DNA of 41,206 nt from the UHGV virus genome UHGV-0372926; one strand, written 5' to 3'. Under the pieces are notes generated by a model that worked only from the letters and a program-made list of their open reading frames with translations, was not told the DNA's origin and did not search any database. The stretch is from a virus. The position numbers and the translations under genes are program-made. Of the stretch, positions 2,491 through 33,784 are shown one piece after another (the stretch's first letter is position 1; each line of letters begins with the position of its first letter).

Positions 2491-2519
2491 TTGATTTGTT
2501 GGTTGCGATATGATTATAT
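2491..2519 (+). promoter_or_regulatory. Sigma70-like promoter: -35 TTGATT (2491-2496), 17 nt spacer containing GTTGGTTGC (2498-2506), -10 TTATAT (2514-2519)
   Basis: Same architecture as the minus-strand promoter at 16214-16242 (TTGCAA-tgttggttgcaatatga-TTATAC). It lies immediately upstream of the plus-strand ORF 2550..2798. Confidence 0.5.
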
Positions 2520-2549
2520 ACATGTAGAACTTTCAAAGAGGAATATACC

Positions 2550-2798
2550 ATGACGCAATTCATTATAGCAATTCTGGCGATGGGGCTAAATCTGGCCGTG
2601 CTGTTCTTCGTTGTGCGCTACGCCACGCGGTCAAGCGAACAGGTCGAATTGTTGCGCCAGATTCTGGCTACGGCGAAACCGGAAGTAAAAAGCGAAATCG
2701 TTAAACTGACAGAAGAAAGATTCCAAAAACGACGAGAGGAAATGCGAAAAGAGTTCGAGAAAGGCGCCAGGTTATCCGATCATCGTTTTGATATTTGA
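2550..2798 (+). CDS. Small membrane protein (one N-terminal TM helix plus a charged coiled-coil tail), encoded antisense inside the late tail-gene block
   Basis: 82 aa: MTQFIIAILAMGLNLAVLFFVVRYATRSS...EERFQKRREEMRKEFEK. It has its own promoter and a GAGGAA RBS, and is followed by a perfect hairpin terminator. Confidence 0.5.
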   Translation: MTQFIIAILAMGLNLAVLFFVVRYATRSSEQVELLRQILATAKPEVKSEIVKLTEERFQKRREEMRKEFEKGARLSDHRFDI

Positions 2799-2800
2799 TT

Positions 2801-2827
2801 AAAGGCCCCTTTCGGGGCCTTTCTTTT
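2801..2827. terminator. Bidirectional intrinsic terminator: aaaGGCCCCtttcGGGGCCttt followed by a T-tract
   Basis: A perfect 6-bp GC stem with a 4-nt loop, flanked by A-runs on one side and T-runs on the other. It lies between the convergent 2550..2798(+) and major tail (-) genes. Confidence 0.7.
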
Positions 2828-3992
2828 ACGCGTACACAAGGCGCTGAATGACGATAGACGACTGCAGGCTATTGCCCGTCGCCTGGCCTTCAATGCTCTG
2901 CGTCACCGACTCTGCGCCGCCAATCTCCGGCGTTACTGCCGTTAGCTCGGCGCGCTTCATCGAGATAGACATTGCGCCCTTCACACCGGACAGAATCGAG
3001 TTAATTTCGACCTGCGTCTCGTTAATGAATTTCTGGATCATCGCCATGTCGTAAAGTTTACCAGCGATGGAGAAGGTGTTGACCGCACGACCGCGCTCAA
3101 CGAACGCCACGCTATTATTCCCCAGCTCGAATTGCGCCGATGCGCCGTTGTCGTTGGTGAAGGTCAGCGTATCGCACTTAAGCGGCTGAATACCATCGAA
3201 CACAGATACATCAACCGAGGAGAAAGGCTCCGCGTCAAAGGTGATCTGTGAGAAGTCCGAACCGGCCGGCGGCGCGGTGAGGATCTCCTGAGTCATACCG
3301 ATAAAGGGGAAAGAGCCGGTAACCATAGCGTTTACCGCCTGCTCAATGGTAAATCCGGAGATCTCAACACCGCGGGTGATAACGAAGCTGTCCGGGTTAC
3401 CGCACTGGCCTTTGAACCAGGTAAGGATCGAGAAGGTCTTACACAGGTTACCAGTTTCCAGTTTGTCGCCGGTGGCGTAATCTGTCTCCGCGGCGGCGGC
3501 AGTGGTTAATGGGTACTGAATAGCTGCGCCGGCCACAACGGTGTCGTTAACGCTGGTGACGATAAACGGCAGCCCGTTATTGCCGGGCAAGTCTGCGAAG
3601 CGGATAAGGTCACCAACTTCGACGCCGTCGGTAAGGAAGTTGCCCGCCGAGCGCGTGAACGTTTTGGCGCCCGCGTCTACCGCGACGTCTACGGCGGTGC
3701 CAGTTACGCCGGCCACCCAGGAAGACGTCATCGCACCTGCAAGAAAATCATCCTGGCTGCGGGAACTCAGTTCGATCGCGTATTCGCCGGAGACCTGTTT
3801 ATTCCCGGTGCGGATGAAGGATGTTTCCCGGCTGCCGTCAAGCTCGTTGGACGTCAGCGCATCGCGGGTTACCGCGGGCACACCGCCGGTATTGCGCAGA
3901 GGCGACCATACCGGGCTGGTCGGTGTAGTTCCTGGCGTTGTCTCCGCAACGTAAAACTGTGCGGTAAGCGCGCCCTTATATGGCTGTACCAT
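2826..3992 (-). CDS. Major tail (tube) protein
   Basis: 388 aa, Thr/Gly/Ala-rich beta protein. It sits between the tail terminator-like gene and the G/T chaperones. Confidence 0.5.
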   Translation of the reverse strand: MVQPYKGALTAQFYVAETTPGTTPTSPVWSPLRNTGGVPAVTRDALTSNELDGSRETSFIRTGNKQVSGEYAIELSSRSQDDFLAGAMTSSWVAGVTGTAVDVAVDAGAKTFTRSAGNFLTDGVEVGDLIRFADLPGNNGLPFIVTSVNDTVVAGAAIQYPLTTAAAAETDYATGDKLETGNLCKTFSILTWFKGQCGNPDSFVITRGVEISGFTIEQAVNAMVTGSFPFIGMTQEILTAPPAGSDFSQITFDAEPFSSVDVSVFDGIQPLKCDTLTFTNDNGASAQFELGNNSVAFVERGRAVNTFSIAGKLYDMAMIQKFINETQVEINSILSGVKGAMSISMKRAELTAVTPEIGGAESVTQSIEGQATGNSLQSSIVIQRLVYA

Positions 3993-6352: not shown

Positions 6353-6547
6353 TTATTGTTCAGCAGTCGCGCGACGGCGACGACGCTGGCGATCGGCGCC
6401 ACCACCGTTATTGTGCGCTTCTTCATTTTCCGGCACTGTCGCCACCAGTTCTTCTGGCTTAACTTCGCCGCGCTGCGGGATTAGCTGGCCATCTACTTCA
6501 ACCAGGCCATTGTAGCGCTCACGGATCACATAATTATCATTTGCCAT
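6353..6547 (-). CDS. Small hypothetical protein with an Arg-rich C-terminus
   Basis: 64 aa ORF with an RBS, inside the structural operon. Confidence 0.35.
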   Translation of the reverse strand: MANDNYVIRERYNGLVEVDGQLIPQRGEVKPEELVATVPENEEAHNNGGGADRQRRRRRATAEQ

Positions 6548-6582
6548 TTTTTAGTCCTGTTACGGCCCCGAAGGGCCGTTAA

Positions 6583-6927
6583 TTACGAAACAGTTACGAC
6601 GGTGCTATCGGAGACGATATTACCATAACCGTCTTGCATCACAACTTTATAGGTGCCGGAATCCGCCGCAGTCGTAGATGCTTTTACGTAGCTCGCAGAA
6701 GTGGCGCCCGCGATCGCATTACCATTTTTAAACCACTGATAGCTATACGGCTCAAGGCCACCTGTAGCCACTACGGTAAGCGTCATGGTCTGCCCGGCGG
6801 TAACTGCTGTGGTGTCATTCAGTCCAGTAGAGAACGACGCGGGAGAAATATTCGCCATATCGATCTTCACCAGTTCGCCGGTGTCTTCTGAAACACCGGT
6901 AATGCGTCGTTTGATTACATCAACCAT
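6583..6927 (-). CDS. Ig-like (Big_2-type) domain protein, possibly capsid decoration
   Basis: ...VTAGQTMTLTVVATGGLEPYSYQWFKNGNAIAGATSASYVKASTTAADSGTYKVVMQDGYGN... is a classic bacterial Ig-like fold signature. Confidence 0.5.
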   Translation of the reverse strand: MVDVIKRRITGVSEDTGELVKIDMANISPASFSTGLNDTTAVTAGQTMTLTVVATGGLEPYSYQWFKNGNAIAGATSASYVKASTTAADSGTYKVVMQDGYGNIVSDSTVVTVS

Positions 6928-6939
6928 TTTCTATTCCTC

Positions 6940-7209
6940 TTAAGAAGCCGTTAAAATGCCCGCGGCGCGGAGTTTAGCAAGCAGGGCATTAAATTCTGCC
7001 TGGGTTGGGGCCGCGGCGGAATCAGCTTGCGCCGGTTGTAACAGAACTCCGCCGCGTTGGGTCGCTGTTGGCACTTTATTACCCGCCATTGCAGTTGTCC
7101 CCGTAGTGCCAATTGCCGGTGGATACGTGGTAGGTTTACCACTAACCTGGTCAAACGCCAGACTCGCGTCTTTCAGGCTGCGCGGCAGCCCTTTACCGGT
7201 GATAGCCAT
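6940..7209 (-). CDS. Hypothetical structural protein
   Basis: 89 aa ORF directly downstream of the major capsid gene. Confidence 0.4.
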   Translation of the reverse strand: MAITGKGLPRSLKDASLAFDQVSGKPTTYPPAIGTTGTTAMAGNKVPTATQRGGVLLQPAQADSAAAPTQAEFNALLAKLRAAGILTAS

Positions 7210-7270
7210 ACATTTCTCCTGTATGAATGTGAAAAGAGGGGCCGCAGCCCCTCCTGATTATACGCTACCG

Positions 7271-9033: not shown

Positions 9034-9138
9034 CATAGTACGTAGACCCCTGGTCTTTATGAATCCGGGCCACCCGGATTTACATACGCTAAATATACAG
9101 GGCAGCGCAAGTATTAACAATATATCTGCAAATGTTGG

Positions 9139-9167
9139 TTGCAATATGTATGAGGCAATATTATAGT
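9139..9167 (+). promoter_or_regulatory. Sigma70-like promoter: -35 TTGCAA (9139-9144), 17 nt spacer, -10 TATAGT (9162-9167); GTTGGTTGC at 9134-9142
   Basis: Nearly identical to the promoter at 33751-33784 (atgttggTTGCAAtat...atatTATAGTtag). Confidence 0.55.
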
Positions 9168-9731: not shown

Positions 9732-9978
9732 ATTTAACCACCTCTCGGGTTATCACTACGGTTTTCGCGGCGCCGGCCTGTTCGGCTTCGGCGGCCTTCG
9801 TATCGTTTACCTGCTGCGCGGTTACCCGTTTCGCCAGTGTCGCCCGGGCCTTTTCTTCCTGCTGGGCTACCAGCTTCGCGCGGCCCTCATTCCAGCCGTT
9901 CCTGTACTGCCATTGGCCGTAAATAAACGCAACCAATAACCCGATACTAAGCGCTATACAGATATTTTTCAGCCCCAT
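9589..9978 (-). CDS. Rz-like inner-membrane spanin (i-spanin); start at the internal Met MGLKNICIALSIGLLVAFIYG
   Basis: An N-terminal TM helix followed by a coiled-coil periplasmic domain. It overlaps Rz1. Confidence 0.7.
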   Translation of the reverse strand: MGLKNICIALSIGLLVAFIYGQWQYRNGWNEGRAKLVAQQEEKARATLAKRVTAQQVNDTKAAEAEQAGAAKTVVITREVVKYVQNPDRVRCSFDDERVRIKQRAIDNANAIPGYDGEAVPVSAGGKGQ

Positions 9979-10004: not shown

Positions 10005-10262
10005 GACTTCTCGCAAAATAAATGATACGATCAGCTTCGCTTTTGTGCGACGCCTCGCAAAGGCAGGCGCGCAACAAGCAATTGAAGTGATCGATTCAGC
10101 CCACCTCGTTATAACTCCTTGATTTTACTCACTTAATTTCGCCACTCGCAAACTAAAACGGCAGCAACCAACGAAATTAGCCTAAGTCCTTGATATTTAT
10201 ACTCGCAATTTGACTCGCAAAATTTTGCGAGTCTTGCGCGTCGCCGATACACGTAATTTATT
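10005..10262. repeat. Iteron-rich non-coding region A, homologous to region B (19890-20162)
   Basis: It shares the blocks ctcgcaaaa-atgatacgatca, gcgacgcc, gtgatcga and tactcgcaatttNNNtcgcaaaattttgcgagtcttgcg...acacgta..ttacgagtt with region B. It holds at least 7 copies of CTCGCAA/TTGCGAG and the palindrome cgcaaaattttgcg. Confidence 0.7.
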
Positions 10263-16213: not shown

Positions 16214-16242
16214 GTATAATCATATTGCAACCAACATTGCAA
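16214..16242 (-). promoter_or_regulatory. Sigma70-like promoter on the minus strand: -35 TTGCAA (c16237-16242), 17 nt spacer with GTTGGTTGC (c16227-16235), -10 TTATAC (c16214-16219)
   Basis: The minus strand reads cTTGCAAtgttggttgcaatatgaTTATACtcat. Confidence 0.5.
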
Positions 16243-19488: not shown

Positions 19489-19662
19489 AGTATTTGCTCC
19501 TCTCGTTTCGGTCCTCTGAGTATATGTCTAAATCAATGTTGGTTGCAATACTGAACAGCAAAAATAAGGGTCGGCGTAACTGGTATGGTAGTCTACTAGC
19601 CTACTTGCGTGCGTGGGGCGCGGAATTCGCTAGGACTAATCTTAATAGCGACCACCAACCCG

Positions 19663-19842
19663 TTACTCTCTTTTGGTTGCTTTTCTCTTCGCAACCAATT
19701 TCGATTTACTAAGGCGTTTTGTCTCCCGGGATTTCATGCTGCTAATATATCGAGTTAACCAAACCTCGACACCCAATCCGCACTGTTCAGCCCTCTGTGA
19801 AATGTATTCGTATGCTTTGTCTGACACTGTTATTTGTTTCAT
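19663..19842 (-). CDS. Possible ribbon-helix-helix-like small DNA-binding protein (59 aa, below the ORF-track cutoff)
   Basis: MKQITVSDKAYEYISQRAEQCGLGVEVWLTRYISSMKSRETKRLSKSKLVAKRKATKRE has a beta-strand then helix pattern. The RBS is GAGG. The last codons overlap the TTGGTTGC/GCAACCAA inverted repeat. Confidence 0.3.
   Translation of the reverse strand: MKQITVSDKAYEYISQRAEQCGLGVEVWLTRYISSMKSRETKRLSKSKLVAKRKATKRE
19672..19709 (+). other. Inverted repeat TTGGTTGC-N10-GCAACCAA followed by TTTCGATTT, a hairpin built from two copies of the recurrent motif that could terminate plus-strand transcription
   Basis: An 8-bp perfect stem located 125 nt downstream of the motif copy at 19538-19546. Confidence 0.4.
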
Positions 19843-19889: not shown

Positions 19890-20162
19890 TTGCAAACTCG
19901 CAAAAAATATGATACGATCACTGCGTTCTCTTGGCGACGCCCGCCAAAGGGCAGCTCGCCTGAGACGCAATAACGTGATCGACTCACTTTGCGAAACAAA
20001 ATCCCTCCATAAATCAATCACTTACCTACCGACTCGCAATCCATTTTTGCGAAAACCAACAAAAACACCCTAAGTCATTGAAAACGTTACTCGCAATTTC
20101 ATTCGCAAAATTTTGCGAGTCTTGCGAGTCGATTCGCATTACTCGCAACACGTATTATTTTA
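19890..20162. repeat. Iteron-rich non-coding region B, homologous to region A (10005-10262), abutting the 3' end of the primase-helicase gene
   Basis: At least 8 copies of (A/T)CTCGCAA or its complement, the palindrome cgcaaaattttgcg, and block-by-block similarity to region A. Confidence 0.7.
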
Positions 20163-22460
20163 CGAGTTTAAGTCCTCATCACTTGCAACCAATTCCGGCG
20201 GGTCAAAGTCGTTCACACCAGTCGGCAGCCTGTATTGTTGGTTGTAAACTTCGCCGGTATCAGGGTTGCGTCCATGCACTAAAACCCGTCGTCGCACTAA
20301 TTCCTCCAGCACTTTTTTATAGTTGCCGCTGGTGAACTTGTTTCCGCCGGCGGTGCCGATCGCATACGGTGAGTACCCCTCGGGCTTGTCCTCCAGCAGT
20401 TCGAGTTGGGCGACCATCACCTCTTCGGCCTTGTTCTTCGGCCCTGCTCCGCCGGAGGTTTTCACAACCTCCCGGGCTACTTCGGCAGCTGGCGATTCGA
20501 ACGGCGCCAGGGCGACCGGTACCAGGTACAGCGTTTCATCGCGTGGCGACATCTCCAGCGGTTTCGGCGTCCAGCCGGACAGCTGATCGGAAAAGTCCGG
20601 GCCGGCGGCGGTGGACAGATACGCGTCGACGCGGTCGGCGTGCGCCTGGGGGACGTCGATTTTACATTTCAGCAGGACGAAGCCGCGCGGCGACTGTTTG
20701 ATGCCGTTACGCGCTTTTTCGTGATAGAGATTGATCTGGTGTGGCTTGGTCTCGTCCGGCTGCTCGATGAAGAAGGCGTAATCCACGGCCCCATGTAGCG
20801 CGCCAGAGCCGCGGGCGGTACGCTGGCCTGAGGATGACTTCGCCGGGTGGTGGATAACGCCGGCGCTGCCGCCGGTGGTCTCGGATATCTGTTTCAGCGC
20901 GCGGACGATTTCCCCCATATCGGTTGGCGAGTTCTCGTCGAACGGCTTTTTAGCCGTGCTGCGCATGGCGACGGTCTGGTTAAGCGAGTCGAAAGCCACC
21001 AGGCCGACTGGCGAATCGCCGGCCGCGTCGCGGATAATTTTGCATACCTCTTTCACGCCGCGCGCGTCGGTGATGTCGATCCCCTTATCCTGCAGGTCGA
21101 TGATATGCAGCCAGTCCAGGTCGTCCTGGTACATTTTCTGCAGCGCCTGCTTACGGTGTAGGCTGGTTTCGCCGCCTTCCGCATCGAAATAAAAATTGTG
21201 GGCGCGCACGACACGCCGTCCGCCGAACGGGATCCCGGCGGATATTGCCGCCATCTGGCCCAGGACGAAGAACGATTTACCGATGTTCGACTCGCCGGCG
21301 GCGTACCAGGTCGATTTGAAGTTAACCAGGCCCTCAATGATGGGGTCACGCTTGGTGAAGAGGGTAACCGGGTCGTCGTCCAGGTCCTCGTCGGTACACT
21401 GTCCGGCGGTGGGCCCGTCGAGCGCGGCCATTACCTCGGCCTCATAGACGTGGGTGATCTCCTCTTCCGGTAAATCCGGCAGCAGTTCGGCAATTTGCTT
21501 TTTGCTGATATTGTGGGCTTCCGGCAAATACTGGTCCGGCACGCCGCAAAGGCGCAGCAGCATGTGCTGGTGCGTGTTGTGCTTCCTGCAGTGGTCGTGC
21601 TGGCACGCGAAGCGCACTTCTGGATGCAGGGCGTCGGGCATCATGATCGCTGTGCTGCCGTCTGTCCCGTCGTTGTCGCTGTGCTGGTAGTGGTTCGGGC
21701 ACTGTATGGCGAAGCCACGGCCAGAGGATAACGGTTCGAGGCCCATTTCCCAGCACCATGCGGCGATCGCCTGGCTGTTCTCGCTGGCGTTCTCCAGCGC
21801 TTCGTCGGTCCAGTTGGTTGAGCCCGATTCGTCCGGCACGTCGAACCGGTGGCGCAGGATGCGGCGGACGCTGGCCGGCGTGGCGCGGTGGTCGAGGGTT
21901 TCCGCTTCGATATGCGGGGCGAACATAAGACGGGCGCGCTGGAATGCGGTTTCGTCCATCCCTTTCGCGCCGGTGAGCCCGAGCATATCGATGAATTTGT
22001 GCTGGCACGGCCAGATCTCATCCGCCAGCATCGGCCGGTCTGTCGGGATGAGAAAACGCCAGGAGCGCGACTTAACGCCGCCTTTCAGATCGTGCCGGTC
22101 GCCGCAGGTGGAGTACGCGAAGAAAGTGTATCCTCCATCCTCCAGCGCGCGACGCACCCGGCGGATCTCTTTGCTGGATACTTTGTCGATATCGATAAAC
22201 AGCAGGGACCGTGAAATGACGTTGTTGTTATTGCGCTTGTTGCGCTCGAACTCCGCAGCAACATACGGCAACCGGCCTTTCTTTTCTTCGTAGCGATCTT
22301 CGGTCTCGCTGCCGTCAATGGATACGCCCAGAACAGGGTCGGCGCCGATCTCCAGCAGGTCGTCGATAAACTCATCCCAGGAGGATTCGAAAGCCTTGGG
22401 GCGATTGTCGGTTTTATGCCGGCCGAGAGAATAGGATATTTTTGATTTTAACCGTGGCAT
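20160..22460 (-). CDS. Primase / replicative helicase (N-terminal primase-like region plus an AAA_25/RepA-like P-loop NTPase)
   Basis: 766 aa. The ...WYAAGESNIGKSFFVLGQMAAISAG... motif is of the Walker A / AAA_25 type. It is the largest replication protein and lies next to the iteron region. Confidence 0.6.
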   Translation of the reverse strand: MPRLKSKISYSLGRHKTDNRPKAFESSWDEFIDDLLEIGADPVLGVSIDGSETEDRYEEKKGRLPYVAAEFERNKRNNNNVISRSLLFIDIDKVSSKEIRRVRRALEDGGYTFFAYSTCGDRHDLKGGVKSRSWRFLIPTDRPMLADEIWPCQHKFIDMLGLTGAKGMDETAFQRARLMFAPHIEAETLDHRATPASVRRILRHRFDVPDESGSTNWTDEALENASENSQAIAAWCWEMGLEPLSSGRGFAIQCPNHYQHSDNDGTDGSTAIMMPDALHPEVRFACQHDHCRKHNTHQHMLLRLCGVPDQYLPEAHNISKKQIAELLPDLPEEEITHVYEAEVMAALDGPTAGQCTDEDLDDDPVTLFTKRDPIIEGLVNFKSTWYAAGESNIGKSFFVLGQMAAISAGIPFGGRRVVRAHNFYFDAEGGETSLHRKQALQKMYQDDLDWLHIIDLQDKGIDITDARGVKEVCKIIRDAAGDSPVGLVAFDSLNQTVAMRSTAKKPFDENSPTDMGEIVRALKQISETTGGSAGVIHHPAKSSSGQRTARGSGALHGAVDYAFFIEQPDETKPHQINLYHEKARNGIKQSPRGFVLLKCKIDVPQAHADRVDAYLSTAAGPDFSDQLSGWTPKPLEMSPRDETLYLVPVALAPFESPAAEVAREVVKTSGGAGPKNKAEEVMVAQLELLEDKPEGYSPYAIGTAGGNKFTSGNYKKVLEELVRRRVLVHGRNPDTGEVYNQQYRLPTGVNDFDPPELVASDEDLNS

Positions 22461-22501: not shown

Positions 22502-22535
22502 AAGCCTCTCCGTTTTGGATGAGGCTTATTTTTTA
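22502..22535 (+). other. Hairpin AAGCCTC-N12-GAGGCTT plus ATTTTTTAT, a terminator-like structure on the plus strand
   Basis: The T-tract is on the plus strand only. On the minus strand it sits at the 3' end of the cro-like gene without a U-tract. Confidence 0.3.
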
Positions 22536-22762
22536 TCCGGGGTGCCTTCCCCAAGCGCCAGCCAGCGAGCATCGCACTCAAGCGCATCCGCCAGGCGAAA
22601 GATACGCTCCATATTCAGGCTTTTAGTCCGCCCGTTCTGCACAAATGATAAAGCCGACTGCGAGAGACCCCCGCGCATTACGACATCCTGCTGGCGCAGG
22701 CCGAGCTGTTTCATCCGCGCATTGACGCGGAGCTGGAAAGGGTTACGGCGTGCTGTTGCCAT
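22526..22762 (-). CDS. Cro/CI-type HTH (XRE family) transcriptional regulator
   Basis: ...LRQQDVVMRGGLSQSALSFVQNGRTKSLNMERIFRLADALE... is a helix-turn-helix. Confidence 0.7.
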   Translation of the reverse strand: MATARRNPFQLRVNARMKQLGLRQQDVVMRGGLSQSALSFVQNGRTKSLNMERIFRLADALECDARWLALGEGTPDKK

Positions 22763-22926: not shown

Positions 22927-22970
22927 TACCTCGCCGAAACGCAACCAACTTAACTAAACGAGGATTCACC

Positions 22971-23459: not shown

Positions 23460-23466
23460 CTGATCT

Positions 23467-26250: not shown

Positions 26251-26275
26251 CATCTGCAACCAACTAAATTAACGT
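26247..26275 (+). promoter_or_regulatory. Promoter-like: -35 TTGACA (26247-26252), 17 nt spacer carrying GCAACCAAC (26256-26264), weak -10 TAACGT
   Basis: Upstream of the SSB-like gene. Confidence 0.4.
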
Positions 26276-27087: not shown

Positions 27088-27092
27088 AATCA

Positions 27093-27118: not shown

Positions 27119-27134
27119 ATCCGGAGCGTGAACC

Positions 27135-27323: not shown

Positions 27324-29506
27324 AGTTCGATCACCTCTTTCTCGACACCGAAACATTCAGTGTCTGCGACCTGAAAAAATGCGGGTCTTATGCCTATGCC
27401 GAACACCCGTCCACCGAAATCATGATAGCCACCTTCGCTATTGACGATGGCCCGGTTATGGAGTGGGATGTGACGGCAGACCCCCGGATGCCGCGGGTAC
27501 TACGCCGGGCGCTGCGTGAGGTATGCAAGCCGAATACTAAGAGCCGCCTGGTCGGACAGAATTTTTTATTGTTTGACCGCCTTCTCATGCGCCACTGTTG
27601 GGGTATAGAGATCCCGGTAAAAAACATCATCGATACGATGATCTGCGCCTACAGGCTATCACTTCCTGGCTCCCTGGATGCGCTATGCCGCGTTCTGGAG
27701 ATATCCGAGGACTTAGCCAAGGATAAAGCCGGTAAAGCGCTGATACAGCGATTCTGTAAGCCTACGCCGAAAAATTACAAGATCCGCCGCTACACCAGCG
27801 AAACGCATCCGGAAGAGTGGCGCCGTTTTCTGAAATATGCCCGCAGCGACATATCGTCAATGCGTGAGGTGTTTTACGCGCTGCCGACGTGGGGCGACAC
27901 CGAGAAGGAAAACGAGATACTCGCCATCGACCAGGCGATCAACGACCGCGGCTTTTACGTCGACATAGCACTGGCTGAGTCCGCCGTCGCCGCGGTTAAG
28001 CAGCACAAGCTGGACCTGCAGCGCGAGGCAATGGCGAAATATGGCGGCAGCCTGACCGGTAAGGACTTCCTCCCGATTCTGCGCGACCTGGCGCCGGCGT
28101 TCGAGATTCCCAACGCGCAGAAGGCGACCCTGGGCGATTTACTCGAGGATGAAGACCTGCCAGACGCGGCCCGCGCGCTAATAGAAATGCGCCTCGGCGC
28201 GGCGTCTACCGCCTCAACCAAGTACGACCCGCTGCTGCGCGGCTTATCCCGCGACGGCCGGCGCCGCGGCTGTTTGCAGTATGGCGGCGCGAAACGGACA
28301 CTGCGCTGGGCGGGTAAAGGCTTCCAGCCGCAGAACCTGGCTCGCGGCCATTATGAAGGCGAAGACCTTGATTATGGGATCCGTTGTCTTAAGCGCAACC
28401 GCATCACGAAGGCTTTCGACATCGCCAAGCTAACGGCGACCACTGTTCGAGGATGCATTATTGCCGCGCCCGGATGCAAGCTGGTTGTTGCCGACTACTC
28501 GAACGTCGAAGGGCGCGGCCTGGCGTGGATATCCGGCGAAGAGGCGACGCTTAACGTTTTCCGGGCCGGTACAGACCTGTATAAGACGCTCGCAGCTACC
28601 GTGTTCTGCGTGTCGTATGACGATGTGTCGAAGGACCAGCGCCAGATCGCCAAGGCCATGATTCTCGGGCTTGGTTACGGCGGCGGCGTGGCGGCATTCC
28701 TGACATTTGCCAAAAACCTCGGGCTCGACCTCGACCGGCTGGCGCACGACCTGGCCGGAACTTTCCCCGACCATATCTGGAAGGCCGCGCGCAGGGGCTG
28801 GGAGTTTGCACGCATCCAGGAGAAAAACAAGCGCGCGCCGAAGGGCAAGAAGGCCGAGCGCCCATCGTATGACCTGCCGAAAAAGGTGTGGCTGACCTGC
28901 GACGCGCTGAAACGCATGTACCGCGAGGCTAACCCGAATATCGTTAACTTCTGGGCCGAGCTGGAAGCGGCAGCATTGAGCGCGATCCGCAATCCGGGTA
29001 AACCTTTCTGGGCGGGCGCCCGGGTACGTGCCGACGGTACCAAGGCCGTTAAGTTCACTCGCACCGTGAAGAATGGAAACCCGGGATGGTGGCTTAAGGT
29101 TGAGCTGCCGTCTGGTCGCATCCTGTCATATCCGGGTATTGGCCTGTCGGTCGAAAAAGAGGAAGACGAGGACACCGGCGAGATCCGCACGCGTACCCGT
29201 ATCAAATACCAGGGGGAGAACCAGACGACGCGCCAGTGGGGATGGCAATATACCTATGGCGGCAAGCTGGCGGAAAACATCGTACAGGCTCTTTGCCGTG
29301 ACCTGCTGGCCTGGTCAATGCCCGGCGTCGAGGTGGCTGGGTATAAGATTATTCTGTCCGTGCATGACGAACTTTTAACCGAAGTTCCCGACACGCCGGA
29401 GTATACCGTTAAGGAGCTGGAGCGCCTTATGTGCGTGCTGCCGGCATGGGCCAAAGACTTCCCTTTGAGCGCCGAAGGCTGGGAAGGAAAGAGGTATAAA
29501 AAATGA
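27320..29506 (+). CDS. Family A DNA polymerase with an N-terminal 3'-5' exonuclease domain
   Basis: Exo I FLDTETFS; motif A VVADYSNVEGRGLA; motif B RQIAKAMILGLGYGGG; motif C LSVHDELL. Confidence 0.85.
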   Translation: MKFDHLFLDTETFSVCDLKKCGSYAYAEHPSTEIMIATFAIDDGPVMEWDVTADPRMPRVLRRALREVCKPNTKSRLVGQNFLLFDRLLMRHCWGIEIPVKNIIDTMICAYRLSLPGSLDALCRVLEISEDLAKDKAGKALIQRFCKPTPKNYKIRRYTSETHPEEWRRFLKYARSDISSMREVFYALPTWGDTEKENEILAIDQAINDRGFYVDIALAESAVAAVKQHKLDLQREAMAKYGGSLTGKDFLPILRDLAPAFEIPNAQKATLGDLLEDEDLPDAARALIEMRLGAASTASTKYDPLLRGLSRDGRRRGCLQYGGAKRTLRWAGKGFQPQNLARGHYEGEDLDYGIRCLKRNRITKAFDIAKLTATTVRGCIIAAPGCKLVVADYSNVEGRGLAWISGEEATLNVFRAGTDLYKTLAATVFCVSYDDVSKDQRQIAKAMILGLGYGGGVAAFLTFAKNLGLDLDRLAHDLAGTFPDHIWKAARRGWEFARIQEKNKRAPKGKKAERPSYDLPKKVWLTCDALKRMYREANPNIVNFWAELEAAALSAIRNPGKPFWAGARVRADGTKAVKFTRTVKNGNPGWWLKVELPSGRILSYPGIGLSVEKEEDEDTGEIRTRTRIKYQGENQTTRQWGWQYTYGGKLAENIVQALCRDLLAWSMPGVEVAGYKIILSVHDELLTEVPDTPEYTVKELERLMCVLPAWAKDFPLSAEGWEGKRYKK

Positions 29507-29901
29507 TGAACGATGTCATGCATTTCGTAAAACGGCAGAAGCTGAAATGGTTCAACGCCACGCCATACCCGGCACAAATAATCGTCTATATCCTCGGAGA
29601 AGACGAGAAACTATTAAAGGCGATCCCAGATCACCCGCCACTTGATGCGGGGGTGAATGGCCGTTGTTGCTGGATTCAAAAGGACGGGTACAACCTTATT
29701 ACGATCGGTGTTAAGCGCGACCTTGGCGATTTTATGGCGGTTGCTGCGCATGAGTGTTACCACGCGATGAATCGCTGTTATGAGTGGTTCGGAGCATATC
29801 ACGATACGGAAAACGATGAGCCAGGAGCCTACTTTCTGGCGCACATCATGCGCGAATTCACGATCCGTTTCGCCGAATTGCTGGAGGAAACAAAGCCGTG
29901 A
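29503..29901 (+). CDS. Small HExxH-motif protein (putative Zn-metallopeptidase-like)
   Basis: 132 aa containing AAHECYHAMNRCYEWFGAYHD. Confidence 0.4.
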   Translation: MMNDVMHFVKRQKLKWFNATPYPAQIIVYILGEDEKLLKAIPDHPPLDAGVNGRCCWIQKDGYNLITIGVKRDLGDFMAVAAHECYHAMNRCYEWFGAYHDTENDEPGAYFLAHIMREFTIRFAELLEETKP

Positions 29902-30188
29902 CGCCAGAGGGAAAAGTACAGGCTTACGCAATGGCCGAGTTTAAAAAACTCGGCGGTCTGGTAAGAAAAATCCGATATGAGGGGCGCAACGGGTGCCCCG
30001 ATCTGCTGGTCATTCTGCCCGGCGGCCTGGTGGTGTTCATCGAAATGAAAAAGGCCGCCAATCTCGGGCCTGATCCGCACCAGGCCCGCGAGCATAAGCG
30101 GATGCGCAGTCGTGGCGCCATAGTTAGGACCATCGGCAGCAAAGAGCAGGTGGACAAATTGGTTGCAGAATTGCGCTATAGTGTTTAG
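29898..30188 (+). CDS. VRR-NUC domain nuclease
   Basis: ...GCPDLLVILPGGLVVFIEMKKAAN... Confidence 0.65.
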   Translation: MTPEGKVQAYAMAEFKKLGGLVRKIRYEGRNGCPDLLVILPGGLVVFIEMKKAANLGPDPHQAREHKRMRSRGAIVRTIGSKEQVDKLVAELRYSV

Positions 30189-30200
30189 TATGTTGGTTGC
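30155..30200 (+). promoter_or_regulatory. Two motif copies (TTGGTTGCA 30155-30163 and GTTGGTTGC 30192-30200) flanking a TATAGT -10 (30176-30181) inside the 3' end of the VRR-NUC gene
   Basis: Immediately upstream of the AGGAGG RBS of the 30216 ORF. Confidence 0.4.
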
Positions 30201-30215
30201 TAAGGAGGATAAACC

Positions 30216-30479
30216 ATGCCTAAACCTAAATTGAGAAAGGCCGGCCGGGAGCTGGTAGAAAAATATGGGTCGCTATCGGCGGCCCCGGATGAAGCGCTTG
30301 CTGCCGTTACCAAGCGTTGCAATGGCCCGTGCCGTAAGCGCAAGCCATTAAGCGAGTTCCACCGTTACAGCGGGCGCAGCGTGGACGGTTTCCGCGCAGT
30401 CTGCAAACAATGCCGCCGGGAAGCCGAACGCGAGCGCCAGCGGATCAAGAGAAACCCGGTACAGGAAGAAACAGAATGA
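30216..30479 (+). CDS. Small Cys-rich basic protein
   Basis: CNGPCRKRK...CKQCRRE. Confidence 0.4.
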   Translation: MPKPKLRKAGRELVEKYGSLSAAPDEALAAVTKRCNGPCRKRKPLSEFHRYSGRSVDGFRAVCKQCRREAERERQRIKRNPVQEETE

Positions 30480-30658
30480 GAGTTTTAGCGGGAGCAATCA
30501 AACGTGGGGACGTGCTACAGGTTGGTGATGTTCTGGAAACTGTTTTCGATGCCTTCCGATCGCTTGATGCACAGAAACAGGAGATCCGCGTTATCCAGTT
30601 CGAGAGCGGGACCGTCATGATCCTGGAATATTCCGACATTGTGGAGGTGCAGAAATGA
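30476..30658 (+). CDS. Hypothetical small protein (MRVLAGAIKRGDVLQVGDVLE...)
   Basis: Internal Met of ORF 30410..30658 with an ATGA overlap. Confidence 0.35.
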   Translation: MRVLAGAIKRGDVLQVGDVLETVFDAFRSLDAQKQEIRVIQFESGTVMILEYSDIVEVQK

Positions 30659-30864
30659 CATCTAAGCCTCATTACCGTCTGCGTCGGTTAATAGACTGCC
30701 CGGATGGGACTCGTTTTTACACAAAGACATCATTCCGGCCATACACTTTGATCACGTCCAGTGTTAAAAAATACGCCATTTGGACACATCTCGGGCATGA
30801 CTTCAACCTGTACGGCGCAAGAAATAAATGGGGCGGTTATGCTATGGGTTGGGTTGCCGTATGA
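30655..30864 (+). CDS. Hypothetical small protein
   Basis: 69 aa. Confidence 0.35.
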   Translation: MTSKPHYRLRRLIDCPDGTRFYTKTSFRPYTLITSSVKKYAIWTHLGHDFNLYGARNKWGGYAMGWVAV

Positions 30865-32282
30865 CCAGATTCAAACGCCGGCCCTATCAAAAGGCGATGA
30901 CGCGGCACATGCTGCGCCATCCGCGCTGTAATATCTGGGCGACAATGGGCTCGGGGAAGACTGGCGCCGTGTTGTGGGTGCTTAATCGCCTTTTCCAGAT
31001 AGGTGAGCTTGTAGATGGTGTAGATCGCGTGCTTATCCTGGCGCCGCTGCGCGTCGCGTCTGGCACATGGCCGGCTGAACAGGTTAAGTGGAAATTCCCT
31101 AACCTCCGCGTAGGAGATGCCACCGGCCCCGCGGCGCACCGCGTTGCCACGCTGGAGGAGGATTTTAACGTTATATGCCTTAACTATGAATGCCTTGAAT
31201 GGTTGACAGGGCTTTATGGCCCGGACGACTGGCCGTTTACTGTTATCGTTCCGGATGAATCAACCAAGCTTAAATCATACCGGTCGAAGAGCGGCGGCAG
31301 TAAACGTGCAAAAGCATTAAGCCGTGTTGCATGGGGTAAAGTTAAACGCTGGATAAATTTAACCGGTACGCCCGCGCCGAATGGCCTTAAGGATCTGTGG
31401 GGGCAAAACTGGTTCGTTGATGCTGGCGAGCGCCTCGGGACGTCTTACGCGGCATTTACCGATCGCTGGTTCATCACCGAGTCAAAAGGCGACCATCACG
31501 CGGCGAAGGGCTGCCGGCCGCGCCGGGGCGCCGATGATGAGATCCACCGGGCGATGAAAGATATTTCGTTGACGGTTGACGCTGCCGAGTTCTTCGGCTG
31601 CGAAGAGCCAGTGCTTGTCCCGGTGCTGGTAGACCTGCCGAAGAAAGCCCGCAAGATTTATGACCAGATGGAAAAGGAGCTTTTCGCGGAGCTGGAAAAC
31701 GGCGAGGTAGAAGCGGCCAATGCGGCAGCACGCACGTCTAAATGTCTGCAGATCGCCAGCGGCGCGGTATACGTCACCAACGAAGACGGCGAGCGCTCCA
31801 CCGAGTGGGAGAAAATCCACGACGCGAAACTGGACGCGCTGGACTCCATCATAGACGAGCTGGCGGGCGCCCCGCTTCTGGTGGCTTACCAGTACAAGCA
31901 CGACCTGGCGCGCATCAAAAAGCGGTTCCCGTTTGCGGAGGACCTGAAAAAAGGTGCTGCCGGTAATAAGCAGATCGATCGCTGGAACGCCGGCAAGATC
32001 GACGTGTTGCTGGTCCACCCGGCATCGGCGGGCCATGGGCTTAACCTGCAGGACGGCGGCTGTCACCTGGCCTTCTTTAGCGACACCTGGAACTATGAAC
32101 ACTACGCGCAGGTCGTCGAGCGTATCGGGCCCGTGCGCCAGCACCAGGCCGGACACCCGCGGCCGGTGTTTATCTATCTCATCCAGGCGAAAGGCACCCT
32201 CGACGAAGTGATGGTGGCGCGTCGCGGTGACAAGGCGTCGGTGCAATCGGTGCTTATGGACTACATGAAAAGGAAGAAGTAA
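30861..32282 (+). CDS. SNF2/DEAD-like superfamily 2 helicase
   Basis: RPYQ (Q motif), GSGKTG, DESTK and C-terminal helicase motifs. Confidence 0.65.
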   Translation: MTRFKRRPYQKAMTRHMLRHPRCNIWATMGSGKTGAVLWVLNRLFQIGELVDGVDRVLILAPLRVASGTWPAEQVKWKFPNLRVGDATGPAAHRVATLEEDFNVICLNYECLEWLTGLYGPDDWPFTVIVPDESTKLKSYRSKSGGSKRAKALSRVAWGKVKRWINLTGTPAPNGLKDLWGQNWFVDAGERLGTSYAAFTDRWFITESKGDHHAAKGCRPRRGADDEIHRAMKDISLTVDAAEFFGCEEPVLVPVLVDLPKKARKIYDQMEKELFAELENGEVEAANAAARTSKCLQIASGAVYVTNEDGERSTEWEKIHDAKLDALDSIIDELAGAPLLVAYQYKHDLARIKKRFPFAEDLKKGAAGNKQIDRWNAGKIDVLLVHPASAGHGLNLQDGGCHLAFFSDTWNYEHYAQVVERIGPVRQHQAGHPRPVFIYLIQAKGTLDEVMVARRGDKASVQSVLMDYMKRKK

Positions 32283-33254
32283 ATGAATTATTATAACGAG
32301 TGGGACCCGCAGGCCGCCGCATGGCTTCGCGAACTTATCGAGAATAAACTTATTCCAGAAGGCGTCGTAGATGAAAGATCAATTACCGAAGTACAAGCCA
32401 AAGACCTCAAAGGCTTTACACAATGCCACTTCTTCGCAGGGATCGGAGGCTGGCCTCTTGCGTTACAGATCGCAGGAATTCCCGCGACTCAACGCCTGTG
32501 GACGGGCAGTCCGCCGTGCCAGCCTTTTAGCGTGGCTGGAGCAGGAAAAGGGAAAGACGACCCACGTCACCTGGCTCCTACCTTTCTCAATCTCATCGCG
32601 GACTGCCGACCTGCACTCCTGTTTGGGGAACAAGTTGCAGCAGCAGTTACCAAAGATTTCTGGGTCGATTCTTTACTCTTTGAGCTGGAGGAAGAAGGCT
32701 ACACCAGCGGGTTTAGCGTACTTCCAGCTTGTGGCGTCGGCGCGCCGCACAAACGCGACAGACTTTTCTTCGGCGCGTACAACGTGGCCGAGTCCTTGCG
32801 CGCAGAACGGTACGGTGAACGGTTACACAGACTGGGAGAAAGTAATCAAACGCAAGGAAGCAGGACGGCAGCAGAACCTACAGGACGTGGTGATTCTTAC
32901 AGGATGGCCTACGCCATCAGTTGCAGACGACAACAACAGCCGAGCGAAAGACCCGCAAGCATATGCGGAGAAGAGATTCAACAGGCCGAATGCGAATTGC
33001 AATCTGGCGACATACGCGCAATATTTGGTGAATCAACCAATCCGCATCACGGCTTCTGGTCAGATGCTGACTGGCTCGGATGCAGGGATGGAAAGTTCAG
33101 GCCAGTTGAACCCGGCACATTCCCGCTGGCTAATGGGATTCCCGCCAGAGTGGGACGCCTGCGCGGTTACGGCAATGCAATCGTCCCGCAAGTCGCCGCC
33201 GAATTCGTCAAAGCATTCATGGCGGCCAAAGCAGAAACCGAAACTAAGGCTTAA
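32283..33254 (+). CDS. DNA (cytosine-5)-methyltransferase; the reading frame is suspect in the middle third (see findings)
   Basis: Motif I FFAGIGGW; motif [14 protein letters not shown]; motif VI LLFGEQV; motif [17 protein letters not shown]; motif [14 protein letters not shown]. However, LMGFPPEWD and GWPTP fall in the +1 frame (32371..33267). Confidence 0.55.
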
Positions 33255-33256
33255 AC

Positions 33257-33748
33257 ATGGCGGATAAATCAAACACGGCGCCGGAGGACAAGGACTGCTG
33301 GCGCTCACCTCCGGAGATATTCGAGCCGCTCAACGAGCGGTTTAATTTCCGCTATGACATGGCGGCAGCAGATCACAATGCCCTTTGCGCTCGGTACTAC
33401 ACCGAACAGAATAGCGCCCTGGGTATCGAGTGGCCCGCAGCATGGAAATGGTGTAACCCGCCATACTCGAAGCCGCTGCCGTGGTTCCAGCACGCCGCGC
33501 AGTACCGGAAAACGGTGTTGCTCCTGCACCTGGCCGTCGCTACGCAGTGGATGGACATCGCGCGCCGGGAGGCGAACACCATTATTCAGCTGACCGAGCG
33601 CATCCAGTTTATCCACGCCAGGACCGGCGAGCGCGCGGCGACGAAGAACAACCGCGACTCACAGATCATCATCTTTGGCCGACGGCCTAACCCCAACGGC
33701 GCGCGCATCGTCCAGTGCTCGATCGCGGATATCGCAAAATATTTATAA
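33257..33748 (+). CDS. Phage Dam-like N6-adenine DNA methyltransferase
   Basis: CWRSPPEIF...NPPYS signature. Confidence 0.7.
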
Positions 33749-33750
33749 AT

Positions 33751-33784
33751 GTTGGTTGCAATATTAGCGGAGTCATATTATAGT
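33751..33784 (+). promoter_or_regulatory. Sigma70-like promoter: GTTGGTTGC (33751-33759), -35 TTGCAA (33756-33761), 17 nt spacer, -10 TATAGT (33779-33784)
   Basis: Near-identical to the 9139-9167 promoter. It starts 3 nt after the Dam stop and gives a leader of about 190 nt. Confidence 0.55.

Follow-up and report, generated by a model that had tools for sequence, protein, structure and literature searches.

The window analysed here (41,206 nucleotides), which is the complete, circularly permuted genome of a Klebsiella siphophage (Guernseyvirinae), carries a short motif that recurs between its genes, and this raises the question of what reads the motif and with what consequence for the phage. 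We distinguish the 10-base word TGTTGGTTGC, the 9-mer GTTGGTTGC and the 8-mer TTGGTTGC, with TGTTGGCCGC as the contrast word to TGTTGGTTGC (a control-probe sequence); in its general form across the phage group the core is asymmetric, TGTTGG-NN-GC, with A as the next base in most copies. On balance we consider it probable that a sequence-specific DNA-binding protein encoded by the phage recognises TGTTGGTTGC, which would act as an operator on early and accessory promoters.

Recurrence and conservation of the core

The recurrence that had been predicted is real. The 9-mer is present in nine exact copies when both strands of the whole window are counted, with plus-strand copies starting at 2498, 9134, 19538, 30192 and 33751 and minus-strand copies at 10164, 16227, 22941 and 26256, against 0.40 expected; none of 100 dinucleotide shuffles reached this count, and a first-order Markov model gave an expectation of 0.39 (P=4e-10). 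In a gene model anchored on annotated relatives, which leaves 2,609 bp or 6.3% of the genome as intergenic DNA, all nine copies are intergenic (binomial ~0.063^9, roughly 1.6e-11). The identical 9-mers occupy at least seven independent sequence contexts; longer flanks are common to 9134 and 33751 and to 2498 and 16227, and part of the copy count therefore reflects duplicated promoter cassettes. The description of the motif as always intergenic holds for the 9-mer but not for the 8-mer, which also lies in coding sequence at 9929-9936, 20185-20192, 30159-30166 and 19673-19680/19691-19698. A tenth copy, ATTGGTTGC on the plus strand, does exist, but at 30158-30166 and not at 30155-30163 as first given.

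The motif also stood up to a search in related phages. Of 18 orthologous sites in VLCpiS11a and 37P2, the two closest relatives, 17 retain the exact 9-mer, and 7.2% of positions differ in the 30-nt flanks; the finding of no change in 153 core positions has P ~1e-5 given that flank rate, with the orthologues located via the exact core. Independently of the rate test, every site in the window has an exact-core orthologue except 2498 in 37P2, where the entire gene cassette has been replaced, and VLCpiS11a keeps this copy too. These comparisons indicate that purifying selection acts on the exact core. The extended form, aTGTTGGTTGCAATAT, fared less evenly, with the T preceding the core found in 6 of the 9 copies but the AATAT tail, which has little information content, in just 4-5. 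Information content is restricted to the asymmetric 9-10 bp core, and the dyad ATGTTG-N4-CAATAT that had been proposed gives way to the conserved unit TGTTGG-NN-GC(A), its CAATAT arm being weak.

Placement on promoters

Six of the motif-adjacent promoters were found by a promoter scan, and the other three were read by eye, with -10/-35 calls that are non-canonical (2498, 26256 and 30177). With these promoters, eight of the nine copies overlap or abut sigma-70-type promoter-like sites, in the spacer, on the -35 or just past the -10, and in either orientation.

Three copies, one of them inverted, supply the -35 hexamer. At 9133..9142 (plus strand, TGTTGGTTGC) TTGCAA (9139-9144) is the -35 of the scan-listed TTGCAA-17-TATAGT (9139-9167), which drives an antisense small-gene pair (9199-9351 and 9348-9488), and at 33750..33759 (plus strand, TGTTGGTTGC) TTGCAA is the -35 of a second TTGCAA-17-TATAGT (33756-33784, scan-listed). 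The TGTTGGTTGC copy at 19537..19546 (plus strand) is reversed, and lies on the -35 and spacer of the minus-strand TTGCAA-18-TATACT (19548-19519, scan-listed). Three further copies sit in spacers. That at 2497..2506 (plus strand, TGTTGGTTGC) is within a putative promoter with a non-canonical -10, TTGATT-N18-TATATA, that would serve a lone plus-strand YebO-like gene (2550-2798), and that at 16227..16236 (minus strand, TGTTGGTTGC) is within the scan-listed TTGCAA-18-TATACT (16242-16213), with a terminator immediately before it and gene 15964-16182 ahead. The third, at 26256..26264 (minus strand, GTTGGTTGC; GCAACCAAC on the plus strand), is in the conserved promoter of the SSB operon and starts 3 nt after its -35, TTGACA (26247-26252).

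Two copies lie past the -10. The GTTGGTTGC copy at 22941..22949 (minus strand) is 15-23 nt past the -10 of the rightward early promoter TTGCAA-18-TATTAT (22897-22926, scan-listed) and 11 nt before the RBS of gene 22971, in the divergent region that adjoins a gene for a helix-turn-helix (HTH) protein. The TGTTGGTTGC copy at 30191..30200 (plus strand) is between a -10-like TATAGT (30177-30182) and the RBS of a Lar-like gene (30216-30479); the near copy ATTGGTTGC (30158..30166, plus strand) falls 11 nt before that TATAGT, within the final codons of the endonuclease gene. The ninth copy, GTTGGTTGC at 10164..10172 (minus strand), is in duplicated module A ahead of the spanin gene, and ends ~12-13 nt upstream of the -35 of TTGCGA-18-TAAAAT (10151-10122, scan-listed). 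It aligns with the degenerate copy GTTGGTTTTC of module B, at 20051..20060 (minus strand), directly 3' of the primase gene.

These placements, which include +3 to +17, reproduce those originally described, and both orientations occur in each arm (leftward, 19538 and 9134 versus 16227 and 10164; rightward, 22941 and 26256 versus 30192 and 33751). A sigma-70 core element, whether -35 hexamer or UP element, would keep a fixed spot 16-18 bp before the -10 and a fixed orientation, and the nine copies keep neither; a T4 MotA box would have a fixed centre near -30 in place of the -35, and one orientation, whereas most promoters here own a -35. Cro and CI bind two-fold symmetric sites of 14-18 bp, and the present core is asymmetric; stoperators are oriented consistently relative to transcription, and these copies are not. 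What the nine do resemble is a set of dispersed asymmetric operators, with many near-identical sites in intergenic regions and promoters. Orientation is flipped, moreover, at orthologous regulatory sites of the window and Serratia phage Tsm2, in which the motif is inverted at the site matching 30191..30200, and such flips argue that the site works on double-stranded DNA, not RNA. The preference of the original prediction for an operator-type site over a core polymerase element is thus upheld by variable position, variable orientation and the concerted change of the two central letters.

Concerted change of the central letters

When GTTGG-NN-G was counted per genome, a single NN was found to dominate each, except that in Otaku TT and CG are level, with 9 copies each (GTTGGTTGC, 9 copies against 0.47 expected). 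NN is TT in the window, VLCpiS11a, 37P2, Tsm2, L134 and L135, CT in phiEap-2, TS33, TS6, VSiP, L137, L138 and L139, CC in L131, and CA in L132 and L133. Serratia phages, too, carry TT. The substitution is seen at orthologous sites as well: the SSB-promoter slot holds GCAACCAAC in lineage L134 and GCGGCCAAC in L131, and the site before the Lar-like gene is GTTGGTTGC in the window and GTTGGCCGC in L131. Such concerted switching throughout a genome suggests a binder that the phage encodes and that co-evolves with its sites, and it is because relatives change the two central letters together that a docking site for a phage protein is the most likely role of TGTTGGTTGC.

The change extends into a gene. 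The primase-helicase gene reads through the 8-mer at 20185..20192 (minus strand) in frame, in its last codons (GAA TTG GTT GCA, E-L-V-A), and this tail copy tracks the NN of its genome (ELVA versus ELAA versus MLAA), reading GAG TTG GCC GCA (ELAA) in L131 and ATG TTG GCT GCC in L139; most CT lineages have the reverse complement, CAGCCAAC (QPT), at the aligned position. This pattern indicates selection at the DNA level on the motif copy inside the gene. The status of another coding copy, at 9929..9936 (minus strand) within the spanin gene, is uncertain; it covers codons L-V-A of a membrane segment, and TTGGTTGC is in the same spanin frame in VLCpiS11a, 37P2 and Tsm2 (two copies in Tsm2).

The slot 3 nt after the -35 of the SSB promoter holds the motif in three lineages (the window, L134 and L131), and a palindrome of GAATAGT..CTATTAT type in K1H, SE2, TS6, VSiP, phiEap-2 and Tsm2, the slot being filled by a palindromic operator in Kagunavirus and Jerseyvirus; a search of the window for the GAATAGT..CTATTAT-type element found none. 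The PHIRE consensus tgAATAGTa-ccTATTat-T of phage fBC-Eco01 has been published as 'phage promoters' (PMC9825357). The Kagunavirus element plays in a sister genus the part that the motif plays here, with 6-9 occurrences in K1H that lie in promoter spacers and in the large non-coding region near the primase gene, but it is unrelated in sequence and palindromic (AATAG-N5-CTATT). Given that it coexists with TGTTGGCTG in phiEap-2, TS6 and VSiP, it represents a separate system.

Candidate binders and alternative explanations

The original prediction overlooked a link to the primase-helicase (20160..22460, minus strand; 766 aa, with a BT4734-like N-terminal domain and AAA_25), which comprises clusters in relatives, the in-frame tail copy and a predicted winged helix. 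Just 3' of this gene the motif forms iteron-like clusters in both orientations, with 5 copies in TS33, phiEap-2, L132 and L133, 6 in L131 and 4-5 in L138; these clusters, 3-6 copies overall, suggest that the site family probably also marks the replication-origin region. The winged helix is predicted at the C-terminus (roughly nt 20217-20441), where an AF2 model of the last 153 aa gave the order H-strand-H-H-hairpin with pLDDT ~86-90 over most of its length. The top Foldseek matches of this region (MarR, MepR-DNA, Fur and a replication initiator) are without exception DNA binders of the winged-helix type but are weak, at E 0.04-0.3 with none at or below 0.001, and the primase-helicase has no sequence match among PDB chains. 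K1H and SE2, whose primase-helicase differs (31-32% identity over ~55% of its length), lack the motif family. Against the link, L140, which has a window-type primase, has no copies in the 12 kb sampled. The region 3' of the window's own primase gene has just one 8-mer copy (20185) and one degenerate copy (20051), so that an iteron role is not evident here. This region and a second paralogous module (the non-coding modules A and B, ~10 kb apart) are dominated by a TTGCGAGT repeat with a 22-bp palindrome (10212-10233); TTGCGAGT fits the ori/crr pattern of P4 better, and the winged helix may bind TTGCGAGT instead.

We tentatively put forward the C-terminal winged helix of the primase-helicase as the binder, at rather less than even confidence. 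The Cro-like HTH protein, alone among the proteins first suggested, is still a live candidate, if a somewhat doubtful one; some other phage protein has a smaller chance, and a host factor is highly improbable. The residues of the HTH and winged-helix recognition helices do not sort with NN in either case. The 59-aa 'RHH' protein (19663-19842) was excluded, since it has no Pfam or PHROG match and VLCpiS11a retains every site without encoding it; its ORF contains at the 3' end an inverted pair, TTGGTTGC-N10-GCAACCAA (19673..19698, with arms 19673-19680 and 19691-19698), that is present in 37P2 and absent from VLCpiS11a. The AP2 candidate was also lost, as a Pfam scan of 40 window proteins detected no AP2 domain.

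It is possible, though we doubt it, that the sites form a classical early-repressor regulon, the idea that came first in the original prediction, in which early promoters are shut off when the Cro-like HTH_3 protein (22526..22762, minus strand; 78 aa) binds the motif. This protein alone in the window has a recognised transcription-regulator domain, its gene adjoins the divergent control region that holds the 22941 copy, and it has orthologues at the same locus in every Guernseyvirinae genome examined. A Kagunavirus palindrome in the same promoter slots would fit one regulator family with diverged specificity, and in the lineages with the motif in the SSB slot (the window, L134 and L131) the HTH recognition helix does not follow the x-S/N-H-I/L pattern seen in other lineages with the window-type primase. 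However, an asymmetric core without a dyad is unusual for a 78-aa Cro-type dimer, the identical 9-mer is accompanied by dissimilar helices (SQSALSFVQN in the window, SQGMLNHLRG in Tsm2 and KQALLGQIRA in L134), and K1H and SE2 carry the orthologous HTH without the motif. Moreover, Tsm2, phiEap-2 and TS6 carry both the palindromic element and the motif and so need two binders, and the HTH protein is the natural partner of the palindrome, which counts against it as binder of the motif. An unlikely alternative is a purely replicative element (initiator iterons, secondary origins or helicase-loading sites) that overlaps promoters incidentally because intergenic space is scarce. It would account for the clusters 3' of the primase-helicase in TS33, phiEap-2, L131, L132, L133 and L138, for the predicted winged helix, and for the copy within the 3' end of the gene, which resembles phage N15 with its origin inside repA. 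Yet the origin-like region of the window is nearly devoid of the motif while eight promoters bear it, placement within promoters is precise and recurrent (SSB, 3 nt after the -35, three lineages), and strand orientation is patternless relative to the putative origin near 20.1 kb.

We give an equally low probability to a switch-on role, in which the motif marks a temporal class or is a positive element of the promoter, and RNA polymerase, a sigma-remodelling factor or an activator in the style of the T4 MotA box makes contact with it. Motif and promoters do co-occur, the TTGCAA of the motif is the -35 hexamer at 9134, 33751 and 19538, and at Tsm2 position 208 and phiEap-2 position 30541 the motif is near a good -10 with no obvious -35; but the distance from motif to -10 takes at least five values, in both orientations, and copies 22941 and 30192 are downstream of the start site. 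Most of the associated promoters are near consensus already, such that an activator should be unneeded, and Pfam and PHROG scans detected no sigma-like or MotA/AsiA-like protein. Least probable of all, to the point of being very improbable, is that the motif is acted on by a phage methyltransferase or by a restriction or nicking enzyme, or is bound by a host DNA-binding protein. In favour of this reading, there are adenines in GCAACCAAC, and among the complete genomes checked a Dam-type methylase (33257-33748, PF05869) is confined to those with the TT variant (the window, VLCpiS11a, 37P2, Tsm2 and Otaku). The complete CT-variant genomes checked, however, retain the motif family and have no Dam-type gene, no methylase gene was called beside the helicase gene in the 20-kb locus of L134 (TT), and VLCpiS11a and 37P2 have no homologue of the 323-aa C5 methylase, so that neither of the phage methyltransferases suggested earlier is supported as the enzyme. 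The sites are neither distributed blindly to coding sequence nor present in step with an enzyme, and a confinement to 6% of the genome would be unexpected for the targets of a methylase or restriction enzyme; a conserved host factor, for its part, would not require a concerted NN change between phage lineages. To our knowledge the motif matches none of the consensus sites of DnaA, IHF, Fis, CRP, sigma-54 or Chi.

Returning to the operator explanation, the sites would be placed on or beside nearly all strong sigma-70-type promoters of this phage, serving rightward replication operons, leftward accessory operons and two antisense small-gene cassettes. A bound protein would at most sites sit over the -35, in the spacer or over the first 20 bases of the transcript, which argues for an operator that blocks RNA polymerase. 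The outcome may be mostly repressive, with early and accessory transcription shut off at a set time or controlled by feedback.

Such an arrangement has partial precedents. C1 of phage P1 has asymmetric 17-bp operators at over a dozen places, and the 'stoperators' bound by gp71 of mycobacteriophage L5 are dispersed asymmetric operators of one phage repressor. The window site is likewise asymmetric without a dyad, highly uniform within the genome, and present in about ten copies in short intergenic regions and promoters. It differs from both in being shorter (9-10 bp), in belonging to a phage group described as virulent, with no CI-type immunity context seen, and in that the relatives' site also clusters like iterons beside the primase-helicase gene; unlike L5 stoperators, its orientation is inconsistent relative to transcription. 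In satellite phage P4 the alpha protein binds TGTTCACC iterons in ori and crr through a winged-helix origin-binding domain, and N15 RepA has its origin within the 3' end of repA. Both recall the large primase-helicase with its predicted C-terminal winged helix and the short asymmetric repeats, in both orientations, that relatives have beside and inside the 3' end of the gene, and the second paralogous non-coding module ~10 kb away in the window is a further point in common. Unlike these systems, the repeat clustered in both window modules is TTGCGAGT and not TGTTGGTTGC, and the window's primase-helicase has no detectable sequence similarity to any solved structure; we know of no description for P4 or N15 of an iteron-type motif spread over promoters. 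Plasmid Rep proteins autorepress at their own promoters, and bacterial DnaA acts on dnaA and nrdAB. Here about eight genome-wide promoters would be controlled, beyond that of the putative initiator itself, but, as with Rep and DnaA, one site family is found both in an origin-like cluster and in promoters, including those of replication genes (SSB, DNA polymerase; helicase).

The motif and its placement at promoters

The window is a complete, circularly permuted Klebsiella siphophage genome of 41,206 bp in the subfamily Guernseyvirinae, and given that both of its ends match one protein, it was opened within the tape-measure gene. Its nearest database relatives are the Klebsiella phages VLCpiS11a and 37P2 (86-92% nucleotide identity over ~45-78% of each query piece). 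An IMG/VR scan with the 14-mer TGTTGGTTGCAATA gave mostly chance single matches, and was informative only for a few near-identical metagenomic contigs, all from one sample. The gene model, derived from the annotated relatives, places on the minus strand from 22762 leftwards a Cro-like HTH gene (22526-22762), the primase-helicase gene (20160-22460), small accessory genes, and the lysis, terminase, head and tail genes, in that order, and on the plus strand the replication genes (22971-34463), leaving 2,609 bp, or 6.3% of the genome, as intergenic DNA.

The genome is mosaic at 6353-8320 and 12896-14167. For the major capsid protein and its three small neighbours no counterpart was detected in VLCpiS11a or 37P2; the Salmonella Cornellvirus VSiP has versions that are 75-95% identical. 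The large terminase shares 96% identity with its VLCpiS11a equivalent and only 24% with the one in 37P2. A pathway that modifies DNA or nucleotides is hinted at by two genes: one encodes an Nmad5 protein (nucleotide-modification-associated domain 5, E=1.7e-29; 23507-24202), which VLCpiS11a has and 37P2 lacks, and the other a DUF3310 protein (17812-18252), annotated in relatives as 'nucleotide kinase'.

The 9-mer core GTTGGTTGC was found nine times on the two strands, each copy where the original prediction had located it, against 0.40 expected, none of 100 shuffles reaching nine (Markov expectation 0.39, analytic P=4e-10). Since genome-wide k-mer lists were dominated by GC-rich coding words, we confined the word count to intergenic DNA instead. 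The proposed intergenic bias holds for the 9-mer, all nine copies being intergenic (binomial ~1.6e-11) and together occupying 9 of ~16 substantial intergenic regions, but not for the 8-mer TTGGTTGC, whose five further copies are all coding; these include the last codons of the primase-helicase, the endonuclease and a 59-aa ORF, and one within the spanin gene. The proposed extended form holds only in part: a leading T precedes six of the nine copies, to give TGTTGGTTGC, and the AATAT tail adds little information; the flanks are A/T-rich. Full-text literature searches on Guernseyvirinae or Jerseyvirinae promoters, phiEap-2 and Serratia phage eta turned up no account of the motif, and the literal strings GTTGGTTGC and TGTTGGCTG returned only PCR primers from unrelated papers.

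The spanin copy of TTGGTTGC lies among the first 20 codons, in the frame TTG GTT GC(N) (Leu-Val-Ala), in the window (9929-9936), VLCpiS11a, 37P2 and Tsm2 (35626 in L001, 1547 in L002, and two copies in Tsm2, at 20592 and 20613). It could reflect codon usage that was inherited in a membrane segment, or it could be functional, as a copy beside the non-coding module at 9973-10260.

A consensus scan identified promoter-like sites beside six copies. In TTGCAA-17-TATAGT at 9139-9167 and again at 33756-33784 the -35 is the TTGCAA of the motif itself; in TTGCAA-18-TATACT at 16242-16213 the motif lies within the spacer, and at 19548-19519 an inverted motif spans the -35 and spacer of the same arrangement. 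An inverted copy sits 15-23 nt past the -10 of TTGCAA-18-TATTAT (22897-22926), and the copy beside TTGCGA-18-TAAAAT (10151-10122) ends 12 nt upstream of its -35. Three further placements were made by eye: the copy at 2498 in the spacer of TTGATT-N18-TATATA, that at 26256 3 nt past TTGACA, and that at 30192 between a TATAGT box and the ribosome-binding site. The placement is thus variable, as had been claimed, with positions at the -35, in the spacer, upstream and downstream all represented, and both orientations occur in each transcription arm. Motif promoters serve the rightward operons of p162, of SSB and DNA polymerase, of the Lar-like, helicase and methylase genes, and of the last small genes, together with two leftward accessory-gene units and two antisense small-gene cassettes; the terminase-gene promoter (14739-14711) has no motif copy.

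An antisense two-gene cassette in the late region (9199-9488), with its motif-bearing promoter at 9139-9167, is closed by a bidirectional terminator (9474-9495); its first ORF (9199-9351, 50 aa) is strongly basic (MNIATKYRKSGKVDLRRLRRCARRLK...) and without a family match, and its second (46 aa) is kept in close relatives. The promoter at 33756-33784 is followed by an apparently untranslated leader of ~190 nt (33785-33978) before the gene at 33979; Rfam gave zero family matches across the window, and a known RNA family was rejected as an explanation of the motif. In the holin region (17369-17434) a promoter-like TTGCAG-18-TATACT leads directly into a strong terminator hairpin (17403-17377; a 10-bp stem, then a T-run) that precedes the holin start at 17368, a layout that resembles a late promoter under antitermination control.

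Conservation and lineage-wide change of the site

Every window site has an exact-core orthologue in VLCpiS11a and 37P2, except 2498 in 37P2, where the whole small-gene cassette is replaced; in the comparison with these two phages 7.2% of positions in the site flanks differ. The identical 9-mer occurs 8-9 times in the Serratia phages Tsm2 and Otaku (0.45 expected), and phiEap-2, Hafnia TS33, Salmonella TS6 and VSiP are enriched for GTTGGCTG. The motif family is not enriched in Kagunavirus K1H or Jerseyvirus SE2.

The core is asymmetric, TGTTGG-NN-GC, with TT as the central dinucleotide (NN) in the window. Among metagenomic lineages retrieved through primase-helicase homology, NN was TT in L134 and L135, CT in L137-L139, CC in L131, where GTTGGCCGC occurs nine times in 21.6 kb, and CA in L132 and L133, where the word is TGTTGGCAGC. 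Nearly every motif genome has a single dominant dinucleotide in GTTGG-NN-G, TT and CG being tied in Otaku and L136 being mixed. The switch is visible at orthologous sites: at the SSB promoter the window, VLCpiS11a and L134 have TTGACA-3nt-GCAACCAAC and L131 has TTGACA-3nt-GCGGCCAAC, and the site directly before the Lar-like gene ribosome-binding site is GTTGGTTGC in the window versus GTTGGCCGC in L131. It extends to the last codons of the primase-helicase, GAA TTG GTT GCA (ELVA) in the window, GAG TTG GCC GCA (ELAA) in L131 and ATG TTG GCT GCC (MLAA) in L139, and in most CT lineages the aligned position holds the reverse complement CAGCCAAC, coding QPT. In this tail it is the protein sequence that shifts while the DNA word, in one orientation or the other, stays. 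At two orthologous control regions, too, the window and Tsm2 carry the motif in opposite orientations.

Taken together, the switches at orthologues, the copy in coding sequence and the orientation flips indicate that the putative site is under selection as double-stranded DNA, and that it would co-evolve with a trans-acting partner encoded by the phage; a host-encoded partner is argued against.

The SSB promoter can be aligned across the whole subfamily, and in the window the motif fills its spacer right after the -35. In that slot K1H, SE2, TS6, VSiP, phiEap-2 and Tsm2 carry a palindromic GAATAGT..CTATTAT-type element, the recurring 'phage promoter' consensus obtained with PHIRE in a Kagunavirus (PMC9825357). 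The K1H palindrome, GAATAGT-N3-CTATTAT(AGT), recurs at promoters and near the primase gene (13027, 29585, 31731, 31776, 35228, 35261 and 36594), and, besides the SSB slot, two K1H regions that carry it correspond by position to motif-bearing window regions: the intergenic region between a small moron gene and the tail-assembly-chaperone gene, and the control region upstream of the HTH gene. These shared slots imply that TGTTGGTTGC fills operator positions in this clade; no copy of the palindrome itself turned up in the window, even when 3 mismatches were allowed.

In the sister genera the palindromic element lies between TTGACA and the -10 at several promoters, and in phiEap-2, TS6 and VSiP it directly adjoins TGTTGGCTG just past the primase stop. 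In the window a GC-rich hairpin, ccggcccggcggtttccggg (26283-26302), separates the SSB promoter from the ribosome-binding site of SSB. Most of the Guernseyvirinae genomes compared, K1H and SE2 among them, have it at the same position and with largely the same sequence. It may form a structure in the leader RNA through which, for instance, the single-strand-binding protein regulates its own translation.

Direct alignment revealed two paralogous non-coding modules of ~290 bp, ~10 kb apart, for which an automated repeat search gave nothing. Module A (9973-10260) follows the head-morphogenesis gene and module B (19843-20159) the primase-helicase gene. Each has several copies of TTGCGAGT in both orientations; they share the blocks GACTTAGG, TGATCGTATCAT-N5-TTTGCGAG and AATGTAAA, and within the window TTGCGAG is confined to them. 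A perfect 22-bp palindrome, GACTCGCAAAATTTTGCGAGTC, lies in module A (10212-10233), with two mismatches in module B (20100-20121). The equivalent places in relatives hold TTCCGCAC (Tsm2), CGGACAA (phiEap-2) or GGGGGAGA (TS6 and VSiP). The arrangement recalls a P4-style ori/crr pair, or else a region for late control.

Candidate binders and function

The motif is probably bound by an operator protein that the phage itself encodes and that recognises this site specifically. It lacks the defining features of a core promoter element, a dyad Cro operator, a MotA box or a methylase target. Repressor sites generally overlap the core promoter, and from the placement of the copies repression is the most likely effect, because the predicted binder would sit between -40 and +20, in competition with RNA polymerase; a dual or activating effect is possible at two sites centred near -36. 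An RNA-level element was rejected because orientation flips at orthologous sites. The spacing of ~3.3-3.9 kb between 16227 and 33751 is suggestive of primase recognition sites; these were rejected, strand orientation following no fork direction. Host DnaA, IHF, Fis, CRP, sigma-54, Chi and CytR sites were set aside, the motif showing no match to their consensus sequences.

Most of the binders originally proposed did not withstand comparison. The 59-aa ORF, put forward as an RHH protein, has no family match and is excluded as a general binder, since VLCpiS11a lacks it and keeps every site. No AP2 domain was found among the 40 window proteins scanned with Pfam (one relative, L139, has an HNH-AP2 protein), and methylases do not track the presence of the motif. 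The Cro-like HTH protein (78 aa) is the sole recognised regulator and its gene adjoins a motif copy, but orthologues exist in the motif-free K1H and SE2, and its recognition helix varies widely among lineages with the identical 9-mer; that it is the binder is conceivable but rather doubtful.

The predicted C-terminal winged helix of the primase-helicase (766 aa) is a reasonable, if less than even, prospect. The motif family occurs in 12 of 13 sampled lineages with the window-type primase-helicase, the exception being L140 (12 kb sampled), and the two genomes with the other type lack it. Relatives have clusters of 3-6 copies immediately 3' of the gene, and one copy lies inside its last codons. 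P4 alpha has a winged-helix domain, and a winged helix is predicted in the C-terminal 90 residues here, although the fold matches are weak. Moreover, the clustered repeat 3' of the window gene is a different word, TTGCGAGT, which better fits a P4-like ori/crr pattern. Full-length homologue searches succeeded (185 clusters), whereas the C-terminal 156 aa alone returned nothing, and the sequence matched no PDB chain. Another phage protein is an unlikely binder. Residue-by-residue comparison of NN with the recognition helix of the HTH protein or of the winged helix gave no clean co-variation pattern across 10-12 lineages.

A broader reading, which we advance only tentatively, is that the primase-helicase initiator, through its winged helix, also regulates transcription globally in a virulent phage. 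Copies of its origin iterons would have spread to nearly every early and accessory promoter and, in this clade, have displaced the older palindromic operator system, with NN and protein co-evolving in each lineage. Replication status would then gate transcription directly, as with DnaA in bacteria, and were the primase-helicase the binder, phages would have their own case of an initiator in control of a genome-wide promoter set.

Guernseyvirinae siphophages are widely isolated therapy candidates against Salmonella, E. coli, Klebsiella and Serratia, yet their gene regulation is essentially uncharacterised, promoters in published genome papers being only software-predicted. The motif is genuine and, with its probable regulatory role, has not been described before; it comes from a phage group that is itself unstudied, and we infer for it a candidate binder and a mechanism. 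It offers a testable regulatory map that comprises a single site, about eight promoters and two candidate binders. Because its sites fall at genuine boundaries of transcription units, it can also help in annotating and engineering these phages. The apparent signature of site-protein co-evolution is unusually clear, and the lineage-specific switch of NN at every copy, the coding-embedded one included, would constitute a natural experiment in such co-evolution.

Among known systems, the operators of P1 C1 and the stoperators of L5 are similarly dispersed and asymmetric, although the stoperators follow a different orientation rule. The origin iterons of the P4 and N15 primase-helicase initiators also resemble the motif, the iteron pattern being found in the relatives only, and in its behaviour the motif resembles the sites of plasmid Rep proteins and DnaA, initiators that also regulate promoters.
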